NCBI GenBank assembly: GCA_030390025.1
Contig: CM059431.1
Coordinates: forward strand, 96,288,001-96,352,000
DNA: 64,000 nucleotides
Direction of reading: 5' to 3'
From: Squalus acanthias
Taxonomy: Eukaryota
Each line of letters starts with the position of its first letter. The first letter of the stretch is position 1. A program made the position numbers and the translations under genes. The notes under the pieces were generated by a model, which was given only the letters and a program-made list of their open reading frames with translations, was not told the origin of the DNA and made no database searches. Of the stretch, positions 4,841-24,810 are shown one piece after another.

Positions 4841-7800
4841 ATCAGAAAATCAGAGAATGGTTACAGCACGGAAGGCGGCCATTCAGCCCGTCGAGCCCAT
4901 ATCGCCTCTAAGCTAGCCCCACACCCCTGCCCTTTCCCTGTAGCCCTGCAAATTTTTTTCCTTCAGATCCTTATCCAACTCACTTTTGAAAGATAAGATT
5001 GAGTCTGCCTCCACCACCCTTTCAGGCAGTGCATTCCAGATCTTAACCACTCGCTGTGCAAAAAAGTTTTTTCTTACATCGCCTTTCGTTCTTTTGCCAA
5101 TCATCTTAAATCTGTGTCCTCTGGTTCTCGACCCTTCTGCCAATGGGAACAGTTTCTCTGTATCTATTCTGTCCAGATCCCTCATGATTTTGAACACTTC
5201 TATCAAATCTCCTCTCAATCTTCTCTGCTCCAAGGAGAACAACCCCAGCTTCTGTCTATCAACATAACTGAAGTCCCTCATTCCTGGAATCATTCTCGTA
5301 AATCTTTTCTGCACCTTCTCCAAGGCCTTCACATCCTTCCTAAAATGTGGTGCCCAGAATTGGACATAAAACTCCAGTTGGGGCCGAACCAGTGTTTTAT
5401 ACAGGTACATCATAATTTCCACACTTTTGTATTCTATACCTCTATTTTTGAAGCCCAGGATCCCGTAAGCCTTTTTAACTGCTTTCTAAACCTGCACTGC
5501 CACCGTCAATGATTTGTGCACACAGACCCCCAGGTCTCTCTGTTCATGCACCCCCTTCAGGATTGTACCATTTAGTTTATATATCCTCTCCTCATTCTTT
5601 CTACTAAAATGTATCCCTTCACACTTCTCTGCGTTAAATTTCATCTGCCACGTGTCTGCCCATTTCACCAGCCTGCCTATGTCTTCCTGAAGTCTTTCAC
5701 TCTCCTCCTCACTGTTCACTATAATTCCAAGTTTTGTGTCATCTGCAAATTTTGAAATTCTGCCTTGTACACCTACGTCCAAGTCATTAATATATATCAA
5801 GAAAAGCAGTGGTCCTAGTACTGACCCCTGGGGAACACCACTGTATAACTTCCTCCAGTCCGAAAAACAACCGTTCACCACTACTTGCTGCTTCCTGTCA
5901 CTTAGCCAATTTTATATCCATACTGCCACTGTCCCTTTTATTACATGGGCTTCAACTTTGCCATCAAGCCTATTATGTAGCACTTTGTCGAACGCCTTTT
6001 GGAAATCCATGAACACTACATCAACCGCATTACCCTCATCAACCCTCCCTGTTACCTCTTCAAAAAACTCGATCAAGTTGGTTAAACTCGATTTGCCTTT
6101 AACAAATCCATGCTGGCTTTCCTTACTTAATCCACACCCATCCAAGTGACTGTTAATTTTGTCCCTGATTATTGTCCCTGATTATTGTTTATGGAAGCTT
6201 CCCCACTACCAAGGTTGAACTGACTGGCCTGTAGTTGATGGGTTTATCTTTACATCCTTTTTTGAACAATGGTCTAATGTTTGCAATTCTCCAGTCCTCT
6301 GGCACCAACCCTGTATCTAGGAGGATTGGAATATTATGGCCAGTACCTCCGCGATTTCCGCCTCAATTCCCTCAGCATCCTAGGATGCATCCCATCCGCT
6401 CCTGGTGATTTATCTACTTTCAGTACAGCCAGCCTTTCTAATAGCTCCTCTATCAAATGTTATCCTATCAAGTGTCTCCACTACCTCCTCCCTCACTAGG
6501 TCTATGGCAGCATCCTCTTCCTTGGTGAAGACAGATGCAAAGTACGCATTTGGTAGCTCAGCCATACCCTTTGCCTCCATGCATAGGTCTCCGTTTTGGT
6601 TCCTAATCGGCCCCACCCCTCCTCTTACTACCCTTTTACTATTTATATGCCTATAGAAGACTTTTGGATTACCTTTTATGTTGGCTGCCATTCTATTCTC
6701 ATATCCTCTCTTTGCCCCTCTTATTTTCTTTTTCATTTCTCCTCTGACCTTTCTATATATAGCCTGATTCTCAGATGTATTTGCAACCTGACGTCTGTCA
6801 TTAGAGCTCTTTTTCTGCTTCATCTCTGTGTCATCATCCAGGGAGCCCTGACTTTAGTTGCCCTGCCTTTCCCTCTAGTGGGAATGTACCTCAACTGTAC
6901 CTTAACTATTTCCTCTTTAAAGGCAGTCCATTGTTCTATTACAGTTTTGCCTGCCAATCTTTGATTCCAGTTTACCCGGGCCAGATCTGTTCTCATCCCA
7001 CTGAAATTGGCTTTCCCCCGGTTAAACATTTTTACTCTAGATTGCTCCCTGTCCTTTTCCATAGCTAATCTAAACCTCATGATACTATGATCACTGTTCC
7101 CTAAATATTCACCTGCTGACACTTGCTCCACTTGACCTACCTCATTCCTGAGAACTAGATCCAGTAATGCCTCCTCCCTCGTCGGGCCGAAACATACTGA
7201 TCAAGAAATTTCTCCTGAACACTTGAAATTCTTCCCCTTCTCTGCCCTTTACACTATTACGATCTCAGTCTATATTAGGATAGTTGAAGTCCCCCATTAT
7301 TACTACTCTATAGTTCTTGCACCTCTCTGTAATTTCTTTGCAAATTTGCTCCTCCATATCTTTCCCACTATTTGGTGGTCTATAGAATACACCTAGTAAT
7401 GTAATGGCACCTCTATTATTTCTTAACTCTAGCCATATAGATTCTGTCCTGGACCCCCTCCAGGATATCCTCCCTCTCCAGCACTGTAACATGCTCCTTA
7501 ACCAATACTGCCACGCCACCTCCTATCTTCCCTTCACACCTTATACAGGAATATTTAATACCCAATCCTGCCCTTTTTTGAGCCAGGTATCAGTTATTGC
7601 CACATCATATTCCCATGTGGCTATTTGTGCCTGTAGCTCACTTACCTTGTTTACTACGCTTCGTGCGTTCACATACATACACTGTAAACCCGATCTTAGA
7701 CCATCCTGTATTCTCTCTTAGTTTGACCCCACCTAATATCATACTATTTCTTACTTTAGTGCTCTGTGCCTCTCCCAATCCTTTCAGCACTTTATTTCCC

Positions 7801-8705
7801 CTTTTTCATGTTACATCCTGGTGCCCATCCCTCTGCCAAATTAGTTTAAACCCTCCCCAACAGCACGAGCAAACCTCTCTGCAAGGATATTGGTGCAACC
7901 CGTCCGGCCTGTACAGTTCCCACCTCCCCCAGAACCGGTCCCAATGCCCCAGGAATCTGAAGCCCTCCCTCCTGCACCATCTCTCCAGTCACGCATTCAT
8001 CTGCTCTATCCTCTTATTTCTATACTCACTCGCGCGTGGCACCGGGAGTAATCCGGAGATTACTACCTTTGAGGTCCTGCTTTTTAATCTCTTTCCTAGC
8101 TCCCTAAAATCTGCCTGCAGGACCTCATCCCTTTTTCTACCTATGTCGTTGGTACCAATATGGACCACGACCTCTGGCTGTTTACCCTCCACCCTCAGAA
8201 TGTTCTACAACCGCTCAGAAACGTCCTTGACCCTGGCACCAGGGAGGCAACATACCATCCTGGAGTCATATCTGCAGCCGCAGAAACGCCTGTCTGCTCC
8301 CCTAACTATCGACTTCCCATACCACTATTGCTCTCCCACTCTGCTTTCCCCCCGCCCCCCCACCCCTTGTACAGCTGAGCCACCCGTGGTGCCGCAGACT
8401 TGGCTCTGGCTGTACTCCCCAGAGGAACCATCGCCCTCACCAGTACTCCAAAGCGAATACTGATTGGAGCGCGAGATGCACTCAGGGGACACCTGCACTA
8501 CCTGCCTGGTCCTCTTCTTCTGTCTGGCGGTCACCCATTCCCTCTCTGCCTGCGCACTCCTTAGCTGCAGGGTGACCACCTCCTGAAACGAAGCTCTCAG
8601 CCTCATGGATGCACCGCAATGATGCCAGCTGCTGCTCAAGCTCCAAAACCCGGAGCTCGAGCTCCTCTAGCTGATGACACCTCCAGCACACGTGGTTGTC
8701 CAGGA
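4841..8705 (-). mobile_element. Near full-length degenerate CR1 LINE (ORF1 esterase, APE endonuclease, RT, 3' tail)
   Basis: ORF1 fragments CWRCHQL and VVVHIGTND; APE GVFYRPP and [28 protein letters not shown]; tail repeat near 4841. Confidence 0.92.
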
Positions 8706-10640
8706 CAAGTGTGTTGACACTTATTTAAAATTCTCTTTACAGCCATATGCTGCAGCTGCAGAAACAAAGTATTTGTTCATTCAAGGGCCAGGCATTGGAG
8801 ATGTGCATTAAAGCTAGATAGATTTTTCTGTGGAAAAATGGTCAAAAAAAATCTCAGCTCTCACTCAGATTCCAGTGAAATCCTGTGTAAAGGCAGTTAG
8901 CCAGCCAGCTAGTTCTGGGAAAGGAGCCTGGCCTAGCAAGAGGAAACTTACTAACCTTAAGCTCAAAGCCAGTTAGAATGAAAAGGCTGACTAGCAAAAC
9001 TTAAGTGCGCCAGCTGATATCGATAGTGTGGTGGATCTTTATTTATTTTTCTTTATAGCAAGGATCTGATTCAGGTCAAATTTGATTATGACTGTTGCTC
9101 TGTACAGTCACATGCTGTTTATAAAACAAAGCAGCTTAATGATTCGTATCTGACTTCATCTCACAGAATTGTTTTCAGTCCACCAACTGAAAGATTGGAG
9201 AAGCACATGTGAAGGCACATGTGAAAAATATGCCATCTAGTTCAGATCATAATGGGATTGGGTTATATTATCGTATGATTAGATGTTTGGCATTACGGGC
9301 ACACTCATGAACATAAGGGACTTGGACCACTTGCAGGAGTGATCAGCACCGCTGTACCTGAGGGAATAGAAGGTAGTGCTGGTTACTAGGGTAAATGTGT
9401 GAATGGTTACCAAAATCACTTCAAACTTTAACGCAGCGCATTGCACCAGCTGCATTTATCTACAGCTAGTCCTCCCTGGTGTGCGAACATCTCTTCCAGG
9501 AGATTTCGGACAGTTGATTGGGTGGAATTACTTCTTCCTTAGTTATCAGGAGACATGATTTGGTTGCACTAATGATAACTGAAGACAATCAATAGCTCGA
9601 AGCACAACAAGGCAACAAACTCAGGTTAAAACACAGACAGTCTGTAATCTGAGTGATAGATGCAACTTGCCACTTTCAACCATGATTCTGTTTGTGAAGT
9701 CATGCTATGCCTCAGGTAGGAGGCTGACTCATAACTAAAACTCTGATGCTTTAGATGTCCCCGGGGTTGACAACTCTGTTTTTTTGGTTCATTTTGAGCA
9801 GATGGTATAAAACATCAAATAATAAAATGGTTAAAGCTGTGCATAGCTGACCCATACGTCCAGAAAGGTCCCAGGTTAGATTACTAGTCTGTGCTATGTT
9901 AAATGATCCCAGCAGGGCCAACAGTGGGGGCATTTTTTGTGGCCTCAGCAACGGCAAGGTGGGGAGCGGAAAACTGACCAGGATTCCCATGCCCGATCAA
10001 TCTCCAGCAAACCCTGCTGGTAGTGTGGGTGCATGTCTGTGTGGTCATCGGCTTCGATGCCCCATGAAATTGAAGTGTCTGCTGCCACTCAGTGCCTGCA
10101 ATCATACAATGAGAAATAGCCTCTTATATGAAATACCAGAGGTGCAACCAACGCCCATGGATCAACCTCAGCAAGCAAAATCAACATTTTCAGAAATTGG
10201 GTAGAAACAGATGAAAAAATGGTCGCAATTTAGGAATGTTGCTGTCCTTCTTTAATAACAGTTCAGTTATTAATAATCAAAAAGCTTCAGGACTATGTAT
10301 TTTCTTTTATCTTTCAACAGCATTCCACCACTCAGTGTTTAGCTCAACTCTTTATTTAGTCTCTCCTATTGCTCCAATTATCCCTTGCCAGCTTCATATA
10401 GGAAGCTAAGATAATGGCCTTGAATTTGTATATATGGAATCCCCATAAGCATGAATGGGAATACCCCAAAAAATACATGTACACATCAAATAAATAAAAA
10501 TGACATATTTAAAAATAATTAAAATGCCATTTAATTAAATATTTAAAACAAAAATTTAATTTTTTGAAAAATAATTTTAAATGTTTTAAAGGGGCTAAAA
10601 ATAACTTTACCTTATTGTACAGGTTTTTTAATGTTTAAAT

Positions 10641-18496: not shown

Positions 18497-19471
18497 TTAA
18501 GTAAATCTGGCCATGATGAGCCCATCCCTGGACTCCTGGGCAGCAATGTGCTCAGGTGCTGGTGGGATCTGGACTGCAGGTTCATCCTGCTCCTCCTCCG
18601 CCGAAGAGGCTGTGCACTCAGTCCCTTGCTCCTCATACAGCACTAATCCTCGCTGCTGCGCTATGTTGTCTAGGGCACAGCAGACCACGACATTCTGGAG
18701 ACCCTGGTTGGTGCGTACTGAAGGGCTCCTTCAGACCCGTCAAGGCATCTGAAGTGCATTTTCAGCATGCCTATTGTCTGCGCTATGACACATCTGGTGG
18801 AAATGTGGCTTTCATTATATCTCTACTGGGCCTTAGTACTTGGCCTCCTCAAGGGTGTCATGAGCCATGTCTTCAGTAGATAGCCCTGGTCTCCAAGTAA
18901 CCAGCTGGAAAGTCTGTTTGGAGGAGCGAAGAGCTGAGGGAGGGTGGACGGCTGCAGGATGAAAGAGGCAAGGCAGTTGTCAGGGAATTTGGCGTACACA
19001 TGCATGATGATGTTCCTATGGTTGCAGATGAGCTGCACATTGAGGGAGTGGAAGCACTTGTGGTTGACAAACACTGCTGGGTTATGATGGGATGCCCTGA
19101 TGGCCACATGTGTGCAGTCGATGATGCCCTGCACCCGTGGGAAGCCAGCCAGAGCGGCAAAGCTGAGTGCCCGCTCAGTAACATTGGCTGCATCAGTGAC
19201 AAAGTTTATATAATCGGCTGACTTTTCAAACAGGGCATCAGTGATCTGTGTGATGCAATTGTGGGCGGCCGCCTGCGAGATGCCGCAAATGTCTGCTGCA
19301 GATCCCTGGAAGGAGCCTGACGCAAAGAGGTTGAGGGCAATAGTGACTTTGAAAACCACTGGTAAGGCGTGTTCACCCACTCCTCTGGGCTGCAGGTCTT
19401 GCTCCAGCAATGTGCAAATGTCTGCGACGAGTAGACATGATAGCCTGAGCCTCCTTTGGCACTGCTGCTCT
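18497..19471 (-). pseudogene. Harbinger (HARBI1-like) DDE transposase, main body
   Basis: [36 protein letters not shown]-terminal CCALDNIA; frameshifted; third catalytic position reads IAQTIG. Confidence 0.9.
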
Positions 19472-20292
19472 AAGAACAAAAGAAATAAGAGCAGGAGTAG
19501 GCTATATGGCCCCTTGAGCCTGCTCCACCATTCAATAAGATCATGGCTGATCATCGAACTTAACTCCACTTTTCCGCCCGATCTCCATATCCCTTGATTC
19601 CCCATGAGTCCAAAAATCTATCTATCTCAGCCTTGAATATACTCAAAGATTCAGCATTCACAGCCCTCTGGGGTAGAGAATTCCAAAGATTCACAACCCT
19701 CTGAGTTCAGAAATTCCTCCTCCTCTTGGTCTTAAATGGCCTACCCATTATCCTGAGATTATGCCCCCTAGTTCTAGACACTCCAGCCCGTGGAAACAAC
19801 CTCTCAGCATCTACCCTCTCAATCCCCTTCAGAATCTTGTATGTTTCAATGAGATCACCTCTCATTCTTCTAAACACCAGAGAGTACAGGCCCATTCTAC
19901 ACAATCTCTCATCATAGGTCAGCCCTCTCATCCCAGGAATCAATCTAGTGAACCTTCGTTGCACCGCCTCCAAGGCAAGTATATCCTTCCTTAGATATGG
20001 AGACCAAAACTGTGCACAGTACTCCAGGTATGGTCTCACCAAGGCCCTGTACAATTGTAGTAAGACTTCCTTACTCTTATACTCCAACCCCCTTGCAATA
20101 AAGGCCAACATGCCATTTGCCTTCCTTATTGCTTGCTGTACCTACATGCTAGCTTTCTGTGTTTCTTGCACGAGGACACCCAAATGTCTCTCAACACCAA
20201 CATTTGAAAGTTTCTCACCATTTAAAAATATTCTGTTTTTCTATTCTTCCTACCGAAGTGAATAATCTCACATTTCCCTACATTATACTCCA
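19472..20292 (-). mobile_element. CR1 LINE 3' part inserted in the transposase gene
   Basis: ORF 19707-20111 ([22 protein letters not shown]); tail at 19472. Confidence 0.9.
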
Positions 20293-20771: not shown

Positions 20772-20883
20772 CCACCCTCCCACCTCCTCTAACCTTTAGG
20801 GGTAGAGGGAATTTAAAAGGTAGGTTCGGTTTATATTTTGTTTTCAGGGACTTAACTTAATAAAGTAATATAAGGGTTAAGTC

Positions 20884-21828
20884 ATGGCAGGAAATCTCGG
20901 CACCGTGTTGTGCTCCTCCTGTGCTATGTGGGAAATCAGGGACACTTCCAGTGTCCCTGACAACTATGTGTGCAGGAAGTGCGTCCAGCTGCAGCTCCTG
21001 ACGGACCGCATGGCGGCACTGGAGCTGCGGATGGACTCACTCTGGAGCATCCACGATGCCGAGAACTTTGTGGATTACTCATTTAGTGAGTTGAACACAC
21101 CGCAGGTAAAGTCTAGGTCAGACAGTAAATGGGTGACCAAGAGGCAGGGCAATATCAGGACGGTAGTGCAGGAGTCCCTTGCGGTCGTCTCCCTCCAAAA
21201 CAGATATACCGTTTTGGATACTGTTGGGGGAAATGACCTACCAGGGGAAGGCACCAGCAGCCAGGTTCATGGCACCATGGCTGGCTCTGCTGCACAGCAG
21301 GGCGGGAAAAAGAGCGGCAGAGCTATAGTGATAGGGGACTCAATTGTAAGGGGAATAGACAGGAGTTTCTGTGGCCTCAACCGAGATTCCAGGATGGTAT
21401 GTTGCCTCCCTGGTGCAAGGGTCAAGGATGTCTCGGAGCGGCTGCAGAACATTCTGGAAAGGGAGGGTGAAGAGCCAGCTGTCGTGGTGCATGTAGGTAC
21501 CAACGATATAGGTAAAAAGCGGGAAGAGGTCCTACAAGCAGAATTTAGGGAGCTAGGAGCTAAATTGAAAAGTAGGACCTCAAAGGTAGTAATCTCTGGG
21601 TTGCTACCAGTGCCACGTGCTAATCAGAGTAGCATGAACAGGATAGCGAGATTAAATACGTGGCTTGAGCAGTGGTGCAGGAGGGAGGGATTCAAATACC
21701 TGAGGCACTGGAACCAGTTCTGGGGGAAGTGGGACCTGTACAAAAGGGACGGTCTGCACTTGGGCAGGACTGGAACCGATGTCCTCGGGGTAATATTTGC
21801 TAAGGCAGTTCGGGAGGATTTAAACTAA
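20884..21828 (+). CDS. CR1 ORF1p: zinc finger, coiled coil and SGNH esterase (314 aa)
   Basis: CSSC..CRKC; IVIGDSIV, PGA, HVGTND, DGLH blocks; uninterrupted. Confidence 0.93.
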   Translation: MAGNLGTVLCSSCAMWEIRDTSSVPDNYVCRKCVQLQLLTDRMAALELRMDSLWSIHDAENFVDYSFSELNTPQVKSRSDSKWVTKRQGNIRTVVQESLAVVSLQNRYTVLDTVGGNDLPGEGTSSQVHGTMAGSAAQQGGKKSGRAIVIGDSIVRGIDRSFCGLNRDSRMVCCLPGARVKDVSERLQNILEREGEEPAVVVHVGTNDIGKKREEVLQAEFRELGAKLKSRTSKVVISGLLPVPRANQSSMNRIARLNTWLEQWCRREGFKYLRHWNQFWGKWDLYKRDGLHLGRTGTDVLGVIFAKAVREDLN

Positions 21829-21875
21829 TATGGCAGGGGAATGGGAACCTATGTAGCGAAACAGGGGGAAGTAAT

Positions 21876-24810
21876 ATGCAGTCAGAAACAAATGTTAGAA
21901 GGGTGAGAAACAATAAGGGAAATCTGAGTAAACAAAGGCAAGAAACACAAAGGGCCATACTAAATCATAAGTCTAAAAGGACAAAGGGTGTTAATAAAAC
22001 AAGCCTAAAGGCTCTGTGTCTTAATGCAAGGAGTATCCGTAATAAGGTGGATGAATTGACTGTGCAAATTGATGTTAACGGATATGATGTGATTGGGATT
22101 ACAGAGACGTGGCTCCAGAACAATCAAGGCTGGGAACTGAATATCCAGGGGTATTCAACATTCAGGAAGGATAGAATAAAAGGAAAAGGGGGTGGGGTAG
22201 CATTGCTGGTTAAAAAGGAGATTAATGCAATAGCTAGGAAGGACATTAGCTTGGAGGATGTGGAATCAATATGGGTTGAGCTGCAGAACACCAAAGGGCA
22301 GAAAACGTTAGTGGGGGTTGTGTACAGACCTCCAAACAGTAGTAGTGAGGTGGGGGAGGGTATGAAACAGGAAATCAGAGGTGCATGCAAAAAAGGCGCA
22401 GCAGTTATCATGGGTGACTTTAATATGCATATAGATTGGGCTACTCAAACTGGAAGCAATACGGTGGAGGAGGATTTCCTAGAGTGTTTAAGGGATGGTT
22501 TCCTAAACCAATATGTTGAGGAACCAACTAGAGGGGAGGCCATCCTGGACTGGGTGTTGTGTAATGAGGAAGGACTAATCAGCAATCTTGTGGTGCGAGG
22601 CCCCTTGGGGAAGAGTGACCATAGTATGGTGGAGTTCTACATTAGGATGGAGAAGGAAACAGTTAATTCAGAGACCATGGTCCAGAACTTAAATAAGGGC
22701 AACTTTGAGGGTATGAGGCGTGAACTGGCGAGGTTAGATTGGCAAGCGATATTTAAGGGGTTATCAGTGGAAGGGCAATGGCAGACATTTAGAGATCGCA
22801 TGGATGAACTACAGCAATTGTACATCCCTGTCTGGCGTAAAAATAAAAAAGGGAAGGTGGCTCAACCATGGCTAACAAGGGAAATCAGGGATAGTATTAA
22901 AAGCAAGGAAGTGGCATACAAATTGGCCAGAAGTAGCAGCAAACCCGGGGACTGGGAGAACTTTAAAACTCAGCAGAGGAGGACGAAGGGTTTGATTAGG
23001 GCAGGGAAAATAAAATATGAAAGGAAGCTTGCGGAGAACATTAAAACGGACTGCAAAAGCTTCTATAAATATGTAAAAAGAAAGAGGTTAGTAAAAACAA
23101 ACGTAGGTCCCCTGCAGTCAGAAACAGGGGAAGTCATAATGGGGAACAAAGAAATGGCAGATCAATTGAACAAGTACTTTGGTTCGGTGTTTACTGTGGA
23201 GGACACAAACAACCTTCCGGAAATAAAAGAGATCAAAGGATCTGGTAAGAGGGAGGAGCTGAGGGAAATCCTTATCAGTCGGGAAAAGGTGTTGGGGAAA
23301 TTGATGGGACTGAAGGCTGATAAATCCCCAGGGCCTGATGGTCTGCATCCCAGAGTACTTAAGGAGGTGGCCTTGGAAATAGTGGATGCATTGACGATCA
23401 TTTTCCAACATTCCTTAGACTCTGGATCAGTTCCGAAGGAGTGGAGGGTGGCTAATGTAACCCCTCTTTTTAAAAAAGGAGGGAGGGAGAAAGCAGGGAA
23501 TTATAGACCGGTCAGCCTGACATCGGTGGTGGGTAAAATGATGGAATCAATTATTAAAGATGTCATAACAGACCATTTGGAAAGTGGCGACATGATAGGT
23601 CCAAGTCAGCATGGATTTGTGAAAGGGAAATCATGCTTGACAAATCTTCTGGAATTTTTTGAGGATGTTTCCAATAGGGTGGACAGGGGGGAACCAGTAG
23701 ATGTGGTGTATTTGGACTTTCAGAAGGCCTTCGACAAGGTCCCACACAAGAGATTGGTGAGCAAAGTTAAAACACATGGGATTGGGGGTAATGTGTTGAC
23801 GTGGATTGAGAACTGGTTGGCACACAGGAAACAAAGAGTAGGAGTAAATGGGTACTTTTCAGAATGGCAGGCAGTGACCAGCGGGGTACCGCAGGGTTCG
23901 GTGCTGGGGCCCCAGCTGTTTACATTATATATTAATGATTTGGACGAAGGGATTAATTGTAATATCTCCAAATTTGCAGATGACACTAAATTGGGAGGCA
24001 GTGTGAACAATGAGGAGGATGCTAGGAGGCTACAGAGTGACTTGGACAGGTTGGGTGAATGTACTTCATCTGCCATACATTTGCCCAATGTGGATAAATG
24101 TGAGGTTATCCACTTTGGTGGTAAAAATAGAGAGGCAGACTATTACCTGAATGGTGGCAGATTAGGGAAAGGGGAGGTGCAACGAGACCTGGGCGTCATG
24201 GTACATCAGTCACTGAAGGTGGGAAGGCAAGTGCAGCAGGCAGTCAAGAAAGCAAATGGCATGATGGCCTTCATAGCAAGGGGATTTGAGTACAGGAGTA
24301 GGGAGGTGATGCTACAGTTGTACAGGGCCTTGGTGAGGCCACACCTGGAGTATTGTGTGCAGTTTTGGTCTCCTAACTTGAGGAAGGACATTCTTGCTAT
24401 TGAGGGAGTGCAACGAAGGTTCACTAGATTGATTCCTGGGATGGCCAGACTGACATATCAAGAAAGACTGGATCAACTGAACTTGTATCCTCTGGAGTTC
24501 AGAAGAATGAGGGGGGATCTTAGAGACGTTTAAAATCCTGACTGGTTTAGACAAATTAGATGCGGGCAGAATGTTTCCAATGTTAGGGAAAACTAAAACC
24601 AGGGGTCACAGTCTAAGGATAAAGGGGAAGCCATTTAAGACTGAGATGAGGAGGAACTTCTTCACCCAGAGAGTGGTGAATCTGTGGAATTCTCTACCAC
24701 AGAAGGTTGTTGAGGCCAGTTCGCTAAATATATTCAAAAGGGAGTTAGATATAATACTCACAACTAGGGGGATCAAGGGGTATGGCGAGAAAGCAGGAAT
24801 GGGGTACTGA
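21876..24810 (+). pseudogene. CR1 ORF2p (APE + RT): 885-aa open frame, 26-bp micro-inversion, 2-bp deletion near 24522
   Basis: [51 protein letters not shown]-terminus continues in ORF 24571-24810. Confidence 0.93.

Follow-up and report, generated by a model that had tools for sequence, protein, structure and literature searches.

The stretch of DNA analysed here (the window) comprises 64,000 nucleotides (nt) of the Squalus acanthias genome (assembly GCA_030390025.1, contig CM059431.1, positions 96,288,001 to 96,352,000 of the forward strand). [quoted passage not shown] The subject of this report is that junction, which in CR1 LINEs of vertebrates is probably a site of programmed -1 ribosomal frameshifting. 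The features of copy 1 are as follows.

20884..21828, plus strand: ORF1 of a young CR1-type LINE (family A), with a Cys-rich N-terminus, an SGNH/GDSL esterase domain and the tail E-D-L-N-stop
21804..21828, plus strand: ORF1/ORF2 overlap, from the first codon past the last -1-frame stop (TAA, 21801-21803) up to the ORF1 stop
21819..21825, plus strand: slippery heptamer U_UUA_AAC, gaT TTA AAC in the phase of ORF1
21826..21828, plus strand: ORF1 stop TAA, directly 3' of the heptamer
21836..21845, plus strand: conserved G-run GGGG-AAT-GGG, from 10 nt past the heptamer, a candidate frameshift stimulator
21819..24533, plus strand: ORF2 frame (-1 relative to ORF1) counted from the heptamer, with a 68-codon linker, endonuclease and reverse transcriptase (RT)
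24511..24810, plus strand: C-terminal remainder of ORF2 in a different frame, a 99-amino-acid open frame GGILETFKILTG...

The ORF1 frame is open from 20881 to 21828 (315 amino acids) and ends GAG GAT TTA AAC TAA (21814-21828). Its product matches Lipase_GDSL_2 (E = 4.4e-13), and a protein homolog search found relatives in sharks, rays, chimaera, coelacanth and turtle. One base back, the frame TTT AAA CTA ATA TGG CAG GGG ... is open from 21804 to 24533, has its first ATG at 21876 and encodes domains matching Exo_endo_phos (3.7e-14) and RVT_1 (1.6e-29). Because an esterase-type ORF1 is followed by endonuclease and RT in the frame one base back, copy 1 is a CR1-type LINE with its ORF2 at -1; the name CR1 is based on the type of ORF1 together with the relatives in birds, turtles and sharks. 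Copy 1 is not intact, since ORF2 changes frame near 24511-24533. The last -1-frame stop upstream of the heptamer lies at 21801-21803, and any change of frame is therefore confined to the 25 bases 21804-21828. A first-pass annotation, made from the letters alone, had pointed to the in-phase heptamer at the end of ORF1 and to a -1 frame open into ORF2 with an ATG at 21876, and the window sequence and its open frames bear out both.

The same annotation had seen the heptamer in a second CR1 on the minus strand, read as GGT TTA AAC TAA TTT GGC AG, and this copy is indeed present.

7265..8772, minus strand: decayed family-D CR1 (copy 2), with an ORF1 remnant at 8772-7893, the start of ORF2 at 7696-7283, and deletions and stops of its own
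7844..7850, minus strand: heptamer in this second, older CR1 copy (family D), GGT TTA AAC TAA TTTGGCAGAGGGATGGG

On the minus strand the junction of copy 2 reads GGT TTA AAC TAA TTTGGCAG, with the heptamer at 7850-7844. A 17-nt deletion upstream, which in a comparison with 11 family-D copies was common to one other copy, has put the heptamer out of frame with the ORF1 remnant. The -1 frame contains a TGA that is present in none of 11 other family-D copies, and an extra base precedes the endonuclease. Counted simply as a word, TTTAAAC occurs 13 times in the window where 11.6 occurrences are expected, and 37 of 100 shuffles have at least 13; there is no enrichment, so the signal lies in place, phase and conservation and not in number.

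The junction could be followed through many CR1 lineages. In the host genome of 3.7 Gb the junction of copy 1 recurred at 99-100% identity in all 40 scored places (of 1080 candidates), from which it follows that family A is young. Further families in the same genome were found with diverged ORF1 proteins from the homolog search as queries: B, C, D (that of copy 2, with copies 87-93% identical to it), E together with some D-like relatives, and the E-like family H. Their ORF1 products are about 40-60% identical to the protein of the window, and a fifth own-genome protein query yielded no new deep family. The heptamer followed by a stop was present at 29 of 30 loci in family A, 12 of 12 in B, 10 of 10 in C, 11 of 12 in D and 12 of 14 loci found with the coelacanth query (E and D-like). 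The misses were one TTCAAAC in family D and copies with local deletions or insertions.

A search of metagenome contigs with the ORF1 alignment gave 35 loci. In the LINE-like loci that extend to its end, ORF1 ended in CAT TTA AAC TAG (L031), GCT TTA AAC TAG (L033, L035, L037, L038 and L041), GCTTTAAAC TGA (L047), GCTTTAAAC AAG (L049, in which the stop is lost) or TCG TTA AAC TAG (L032). The ORF1 product of L037, with homologs in many birds, turtles and a snake, shares 98% identity with a penguin protein; these contigs thus represent the classical CR1 of amniotes. Searching genome contigs for relatives of ORF1 returned just bacterial SGNH hydrolases of 21-28% identity, and viral contigs returned none. 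Taken together, the heptamer plus stop occurred in every CR1 lineage that was read at the DNA level, that is, in at least five divergent families of the host genome and in bird-type and other CR1s from metagenomes, and across all lineages with the in-phase heptamer the ORF1 proteins are only 30-60% identical.

It might be supposed that the heptamer is simply what the encoded amino acids dictate. To judge this we used a codon alignment of the last ~140 codons of ORF1 from 11 lineages, with columns conserved in at least 10 sequences and having a degenerate codon as controls. Wherever the end of ORF1 was readable (11 lineages), the heptamer had the same phase; the terminal Leu was TTA in 11/11 and the terminal Asn AAC in 11/11. 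All 18 other conserved degenerate columns of ORF1 used two to six codons each, and TTA made up one of 51 codons at the other conserved Leu columns. The first-pass annotation had asked for a survey of heptamer phase at CR1 junctions and had named free variation at the heptamer's synonymous positions as a refutation; those positions are fixed while the controls vary. Among 12 lineage representatives, positions 2-7 of the heptamer were invariant and position 1 (T) was kept in 11, and a stop (TAA, TAG or TGA) stood directly 3' of the heptamer in all 12. The profile of these representatives shows two conserved islands with variable bases between them. One consists of the seven heptamer positions together with T and A/G in the stop; the other has G at +11 to +15 and then another GGG.

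The protein termini tell the same story on a wider sample. Leu-Asn ended 51 of the 67 intact-tail homologs of the window's ORF1 (from sharks, rays, chimaera, coelacanth and tortoise), the other 16 being mostly more distant groups that end in RTI or ECN; among the 37 intact-tail ORF1s of bird, turtle and snake origin, 35 had the same ending (71 of 117 among all hits). The residue before the terminal Leu had 10 identities, yet in 50 of the 51 proteins it was one that a codon ending in T can encode, whereas one position further upstream 27 of the 51 had E, K, Q, M or W, whose codons cannot end in T. We regard the junction signal as almost certainly selected and conserved.

Dual coding, in which the heptamer would be kept for the protein of the -1 frame, was considered as a cause of this conservation and rejected. 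In 10 of 12 lineages the -1 frame is closed by a stop no more than six codons upstream, without an intervening ATG, and tandem slippage would never have TTT AAA decoded as Phe-Lys. As a separate observation, three database proteins (P0033, P0075 and P0199) run through the junction as ...G-F-K-L-..., that is, in the -1 frame across the heptamer; presumably they stem from copies that had an indel upstream, or else from gene models with a corrected frame.

A second possibility is that the block of heptamer, stop and G-run does not act in translation at all but serves RNA packaging, recognition by the RT or an internal promoter, with ORF2 translated off a separate RNA or by way of an internal entry site. 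This idea would accommodate a G-run for which no function in frameshifting is known and around which no structure is predicted. It is nevertheless hardly credible, because the block is placed exactly at the change of frame, in phase and inside a very short overlap, and matches one of the best-characterised slippery heptamers of eukaryotes; moreover, every lineage has its -1 frame open from there on, and no joint or shorter form occurs in the contigs. The last point rests on contigs from four runs of two studies, which bridge the junction without an indel or a joint and show neither an edited nor a spliced in-frame form (that the runs are of RNA origin is a guess). Transcriptional slippage or editing was rejected on the same contigs and on the lack of a homopolymer at the family A junction.

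How, then, is ORF2 reached? From the heptamer to the first conserved motif of the endonuclease, N-A-R-S, the -1 frame contained one stop, in an old copy, in 652 codons over 11 lineages; the remaining two frames contained 55 and 64. (The old and decayed m47, L047, was excluded from this count, its motif search having matched a chance NARS.) The linker that is thus kept open is 35-95 codons long and highly variable in sequence. In 10 of 12 lineages a -1-frame stop lies within six codons upstream of the heptamer, and the overlap, which includes the heptamer, measures at most about eight codons. Because the -1 frame is closed just upstream, frames can be exchanged only over a few codons, among them those of the heptamer.

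No conserved AUG is available for a separate start. Five lineages have their first ATG in the ORF2 frame at codon 4-28 and three at codon 43-89, and families C and E and L031 have none before N-A-R-S. In families C and E, where most scored matches have an unbroken ORF1, the ORF2 frame has no Met until codon 166 and 178, respectively, past the NARS and TETW motifs, so that a start at AUG would yield a truncated endonuclease. A -1 frame often closed ahead of a conserved ATG, which the first-pass annotation had named as fatal to its proposal, is accordingly not what the lineages show. The triplet overlapping the ORF1 stop is AUA, AUU, GAA, GGU, GAU or AAG depending on the lineage and never AUG, for which reason stop-start coupling of the UAAUG kind was rejected.

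These data bear directly on termination and reinitiation as an alternative. The 40S subunit would stay on the RNA after the ORF1 stop and restart in the -1 frame at a downstream AUG or a non-AUG codon, with the G tract as a tether comparable to the UGGGA of the calicivirus termination upstream ribosome-binding site (TURBS) and the heptamer kept for some other reason. Families A, C and E do have UGGGA within their G tract, downstream of the stop, but it is absent there from the bird-type lineages and L031, and TURBS motifs sit upstream of the restart site and not 10 nt downstream of a stop. Five of 11 lineages offer an in-frame ATG 4-28 codons downstream, though the ATG is conserved neither in place nor in presence. 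No frameshift-stimulating structure was found by folding or with RNAalifold, which also speaks for a restart. Precedents exist among other non-LTR elements: the available passages of two papers describe AUG-independent translation of L1 ORF2 and UAAUG coupling in SART1, whose ORF2 is also at -1 (PMC3708506, PMC5009743). Where SART1 has AUG overlapping the stop, sharks have AUA or AUU and L031, L037 and L041 have GAA, GGU or GAU. Reinitiation leaves unexplained why T TTA AAC is fixed in phase at synonymous sites and why a T precedes the heptamer Leu whatever the amino acid. We consider it unlikely.

The explanation we prefer is programmed -1 frameshifting, with a probability of about 0.78 on the sequence data at hand. 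At U_UUA_AAC a ribosome translating ORF1 would hold Leu-tRNA in its P site and Asn-tRNA in its A site. The majority would decode AAC, reach the adjacent stop and release the ORF1 protein (ORF1p). A minority would slip back by one base, the tRNAs re-pairing from UUA to UUU and from AAC to AAA, bypass the stop and enter the frame of ORF2. The product would be an ORF1p-ORF2p fusion, reading ...E-D-L-N-L-I-W-Q-G... in copy 1, and the efficiency of the slip would set a low ratio of ORF2 to ORF1 product in a manner analogous to retroviral Gag-Pol. The slip is likely modulated by the stop next to the heptamer and by the conserved G-run that begins 10 nt downstream. That ribosomes slip here, how often they do so and what the G-run contributes are matters we infer from the arrangement just described. 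The proposal that CR1 makes an ORF1-ORF2 fusion by -1 frameshifting and not by reinitiation had been put forward in the first-pass annotation; synonymous fixation, the open -1 frame and the unconserved ATG now support it.

A variant would still yield a -1 fusion. Here only the Asn-tRNA in the P site slips, from AAC to AAA, while the stop in the A site is slowly decoded, so that the signal would be A_AAC plus stop. The stop adjoins the heptamer in 12 of 12 lineages, which is unusual for sites of tandem slippage, and L032 and L122 retain TTAAAC plus stop with G at position 1. However, TTT at positions 1-3 is as conserved as AAAC (11/12, 12/12 and 12/12), and the wobble T before Leu is kept across 10 amino acids; neither would be needed if only the Asn-tRNA slipped. 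Slippage of a single tRNA is for this reason quite improbable.

The second conserved island deserves separate consideration. In the representatives G occupied +11, +12 and +14 in 12 of 12 and +13 in 11 of 12. A run of four to seven G begins exactly 10 nt past the heptamer in 10 of 12 lineages, and in the other two it begins 8 and 7 nt past it and still covers +11 and +12. An Rfam search of the junction gave no hits. Nested folds contained no stimulatory stem-loop 5-9 nt downstream, pseudoknots and long-range pairing lying outside that search. The first-pass annotation had likewise seen no clear structure, only a G-rich tract, and individual folds and RNAalifold leave that description standing. 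A low rate of slippage without a stimulator might suit a LINE that needs little ORF2 protein. One may go further and suppose that all vertebrate CR1 LINEs make their RT only as a fusion at U_UUA_AAC-stop, tuned by a linear G-run exactly 10 nt downstream without any RNA fold, and that the reader of the G-run is either a protein, perhaps ORF1p, which would give feedback and cis-preference, or the entry channel of the ribosome. This extended proposal is possible but doubtful; if true, it would amount to a Gag-Pol-like strategy in a non-LTR (long terminal repeat) element with a new kind of stimulator. Separately, the bird-type contigs L037 (469-492) and L041 (1954-1978) have a hairpin about 27 nt past the heptamer (stem CCAGGCU/AGCCUGG in L041), and nothing comparable was seen in the shark families.

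Several points weigh against programmed frameshifting. Folding of the 100 nt downstream in nine sequences gave z scores of 0.80, -2.01, 0.52, -0.96, 0.80, 0.43, 0.24, 0.87 and -0.42, just one of them below -1; RNAalifold predicted no pairs for 11 lineages, and folding that allows for G-quadruplexes predicted a two-layer quadruplex in only 4 of 12. The heptamer has exceptions, namely GTTAAAC in L032 and L122 and TTCAAAC in L098, and protein P0004 ends in E-E-L-N, where Glu before Leu is incompatible with a codon ending in T; most of the exceptions are single copies and may have decayed. Families A and B and the lineages m32, m33 and m37 are those with an in-frame ATG 4-28 codons downstream, and in them reinitiation at AUG is possible. 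According to the available passages of two sources, ORF2 of human L1 is translated without the need for an AUG (PMC3708506, PMC5009743), so that a missing AUG alone is no proof of frameshifting. Finally, the lineages share ancestry, and the counts given above are not counts of independent events.

Known recoding systems provide a useful frame for comparison. UUUAAAC is the -1 frameshift site of coronavirus ORF1a/1b, which shares with CR1 the heptamer, its phase and the shift into a frame encoding a polymerase. In coronaviruses, however, a pseudoknot follows about 5-7 nt downstream and the 0-frame stop comes later, whereas in CR1 nested folding predicts no structure, the stop abuts the heptamer and the downstream element is a G-run at 10 nt. 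A stop immediately 3' of the heptamer is found in luteoviruses and dianthoviruses such as barley yellow dwarf virus (BYDV) and red clover necrotic mosaic virus (RCNMV), but these have a nearby stem-loop, to which BYDV adds a long-range interaction, and their heptamers are G_GGU_UUU and G_GAU_UUU. A conserved element about 10-14 nt downstream marks the sites stimulated by arterivirus nsp1beta with PCBP, where the motif is C-rich, and by cardiovirus 2A. The spacing of the CR1 G-run is similar, a resemblance only, and in contrast to those protein-stimulated sites the CR1 motif is G-rich and has no known binding protein. In retroviral and LTR-element Gag-Pol, as in CR1, an RNA-binding structural protein lies upstream and the RT downstream at -1. 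CR1, by contrast, belongs to the non-LTR elements and lacks a protease that could cleave the fusion; the linkers inspected showed no 2A-like motif. That a low-frequency fusion sets stoichiometry is exemplified by Gag-Pol of avian leukosis virus (PMC11835228).

Closer relatives are SART1 and human L1, which also carry two ORFs on one RNA and of which SART1 likewise has ORF2 at -1 at the ORF1 stop, according to the accessible text (PMC3708506). CR1 departs from both in having no conserved AUG at or near the stop and in possessing an in-phase slippery heptamer, which is not described for SART1 or L1. How the second ORF of LINEs is translated was called "not clear" in the available portion of a paper of 2013 on 2A sequences (PMC3708506), and the non-LTR passages of a recoding review of 2016 deal with HeT-A gag, TART and L1 and not with CR1 (PMC5009743). 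For unrelated LINEs of ciliates, +1 frameshifting or reinitiation has been suggested in Paramecium, in the section available (PMC5405496). In a full-text literature search neither a slippery site nor frameshifting was found described for CR1, although older CR1 papers from the 1990s to 2003 were beyond its reach and may hold a prior mention. The accessible parts of PMC5009743, PMC3708506, PMC4255032, PMC11835228, PMC5911963, PMC5405496, PMC2734521 and PMC2612034 likewise do not mention a CR1 frameshift site.

The recoding mechanism itself is thus a known one; what is new is the class of element, and what is unusual is the downstream signal. Translation of the second ORF of LINEs is a long-standing question, and a slippery site in CR1, which is the principal transposon family in birds, reptiles and cartilaginous fishes, would give a large LINE clade a concrete mechanism. 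If it operates, an ORF1p-ORF2p fusion is predicted to be the active enzyme, and the expression strategies of non-LTR elements and of LTR elements and retroviruses would be linked. A G-run at fixed spacing without an RNA fold would be of interest to the frameshifting field itself. For annotation, the junction could allow ORF1 and ORF2 of CR1 to be joined correctly, and heptamer plus G-run form a compact marker of it.

Natural fusions of the two frames were also found in the host genome. Family E has eight G directly before the heptamer (G8), and copies with nine (G9) have ORF1 and ORF2 fused in one frame. At least 12 of 124 scored matches have fused open frames of 399-1290 amino acids, and the sequence was inspected in six copies of this kind. 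Four of the six G9 copies (L102 and L114-L118) share an A-to-T difference, with ATTCAG in place of ATACAG, that occurs in none of six G8 copies (L101, L104, L108, L110, L111 and L113). A fused G9 subfamily of E may thus have amplified, with the qualification that the sample is small and that homopolymer or assembly errors are possible. In the E-like family H (L120-L122) the G run before the heptamer varies by copy from 10 to 17 bases, L122 being the copy with GTTAAAC. In L119, a family C copy (G000 C14), a 4-nt deletion of its own inside the heptamer-stop block fuses ORF1 and ORF2 into an open frame of 1270 amino acids.

Some CR1 ORF1s carry apparently wrong names in the databases. P0011, P0189, P0028, P0071/P0072, P0155 and P0182 include entries labelled as SGNH hydrolases of Pseudomonas aeruginosa or Klebsiella pneumoniae or as host gene models; those with bacterial labels are likely vertebrate DNA in bacterial assemblies. 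Host gene models fused with a CR1 ORF1 are named as ribosomal protein S24, TMEM204, PDLIM5 and ST5.

Within the window, 5'-truncated fragments of CR1 ORF2 crowd both strands at many places between 2675 and 44672, and ORF1 is kept in just the two copies described. Immediately upstream of copy 1, on the minus strand (18826-19617), lies an open frame of 264 amino acids with a match to DDE_Tnp_4 (E = 3.2e-12), which by its predicted protein is a remnant of a Harbinger/PIF-type transposase or a domesticated relative.

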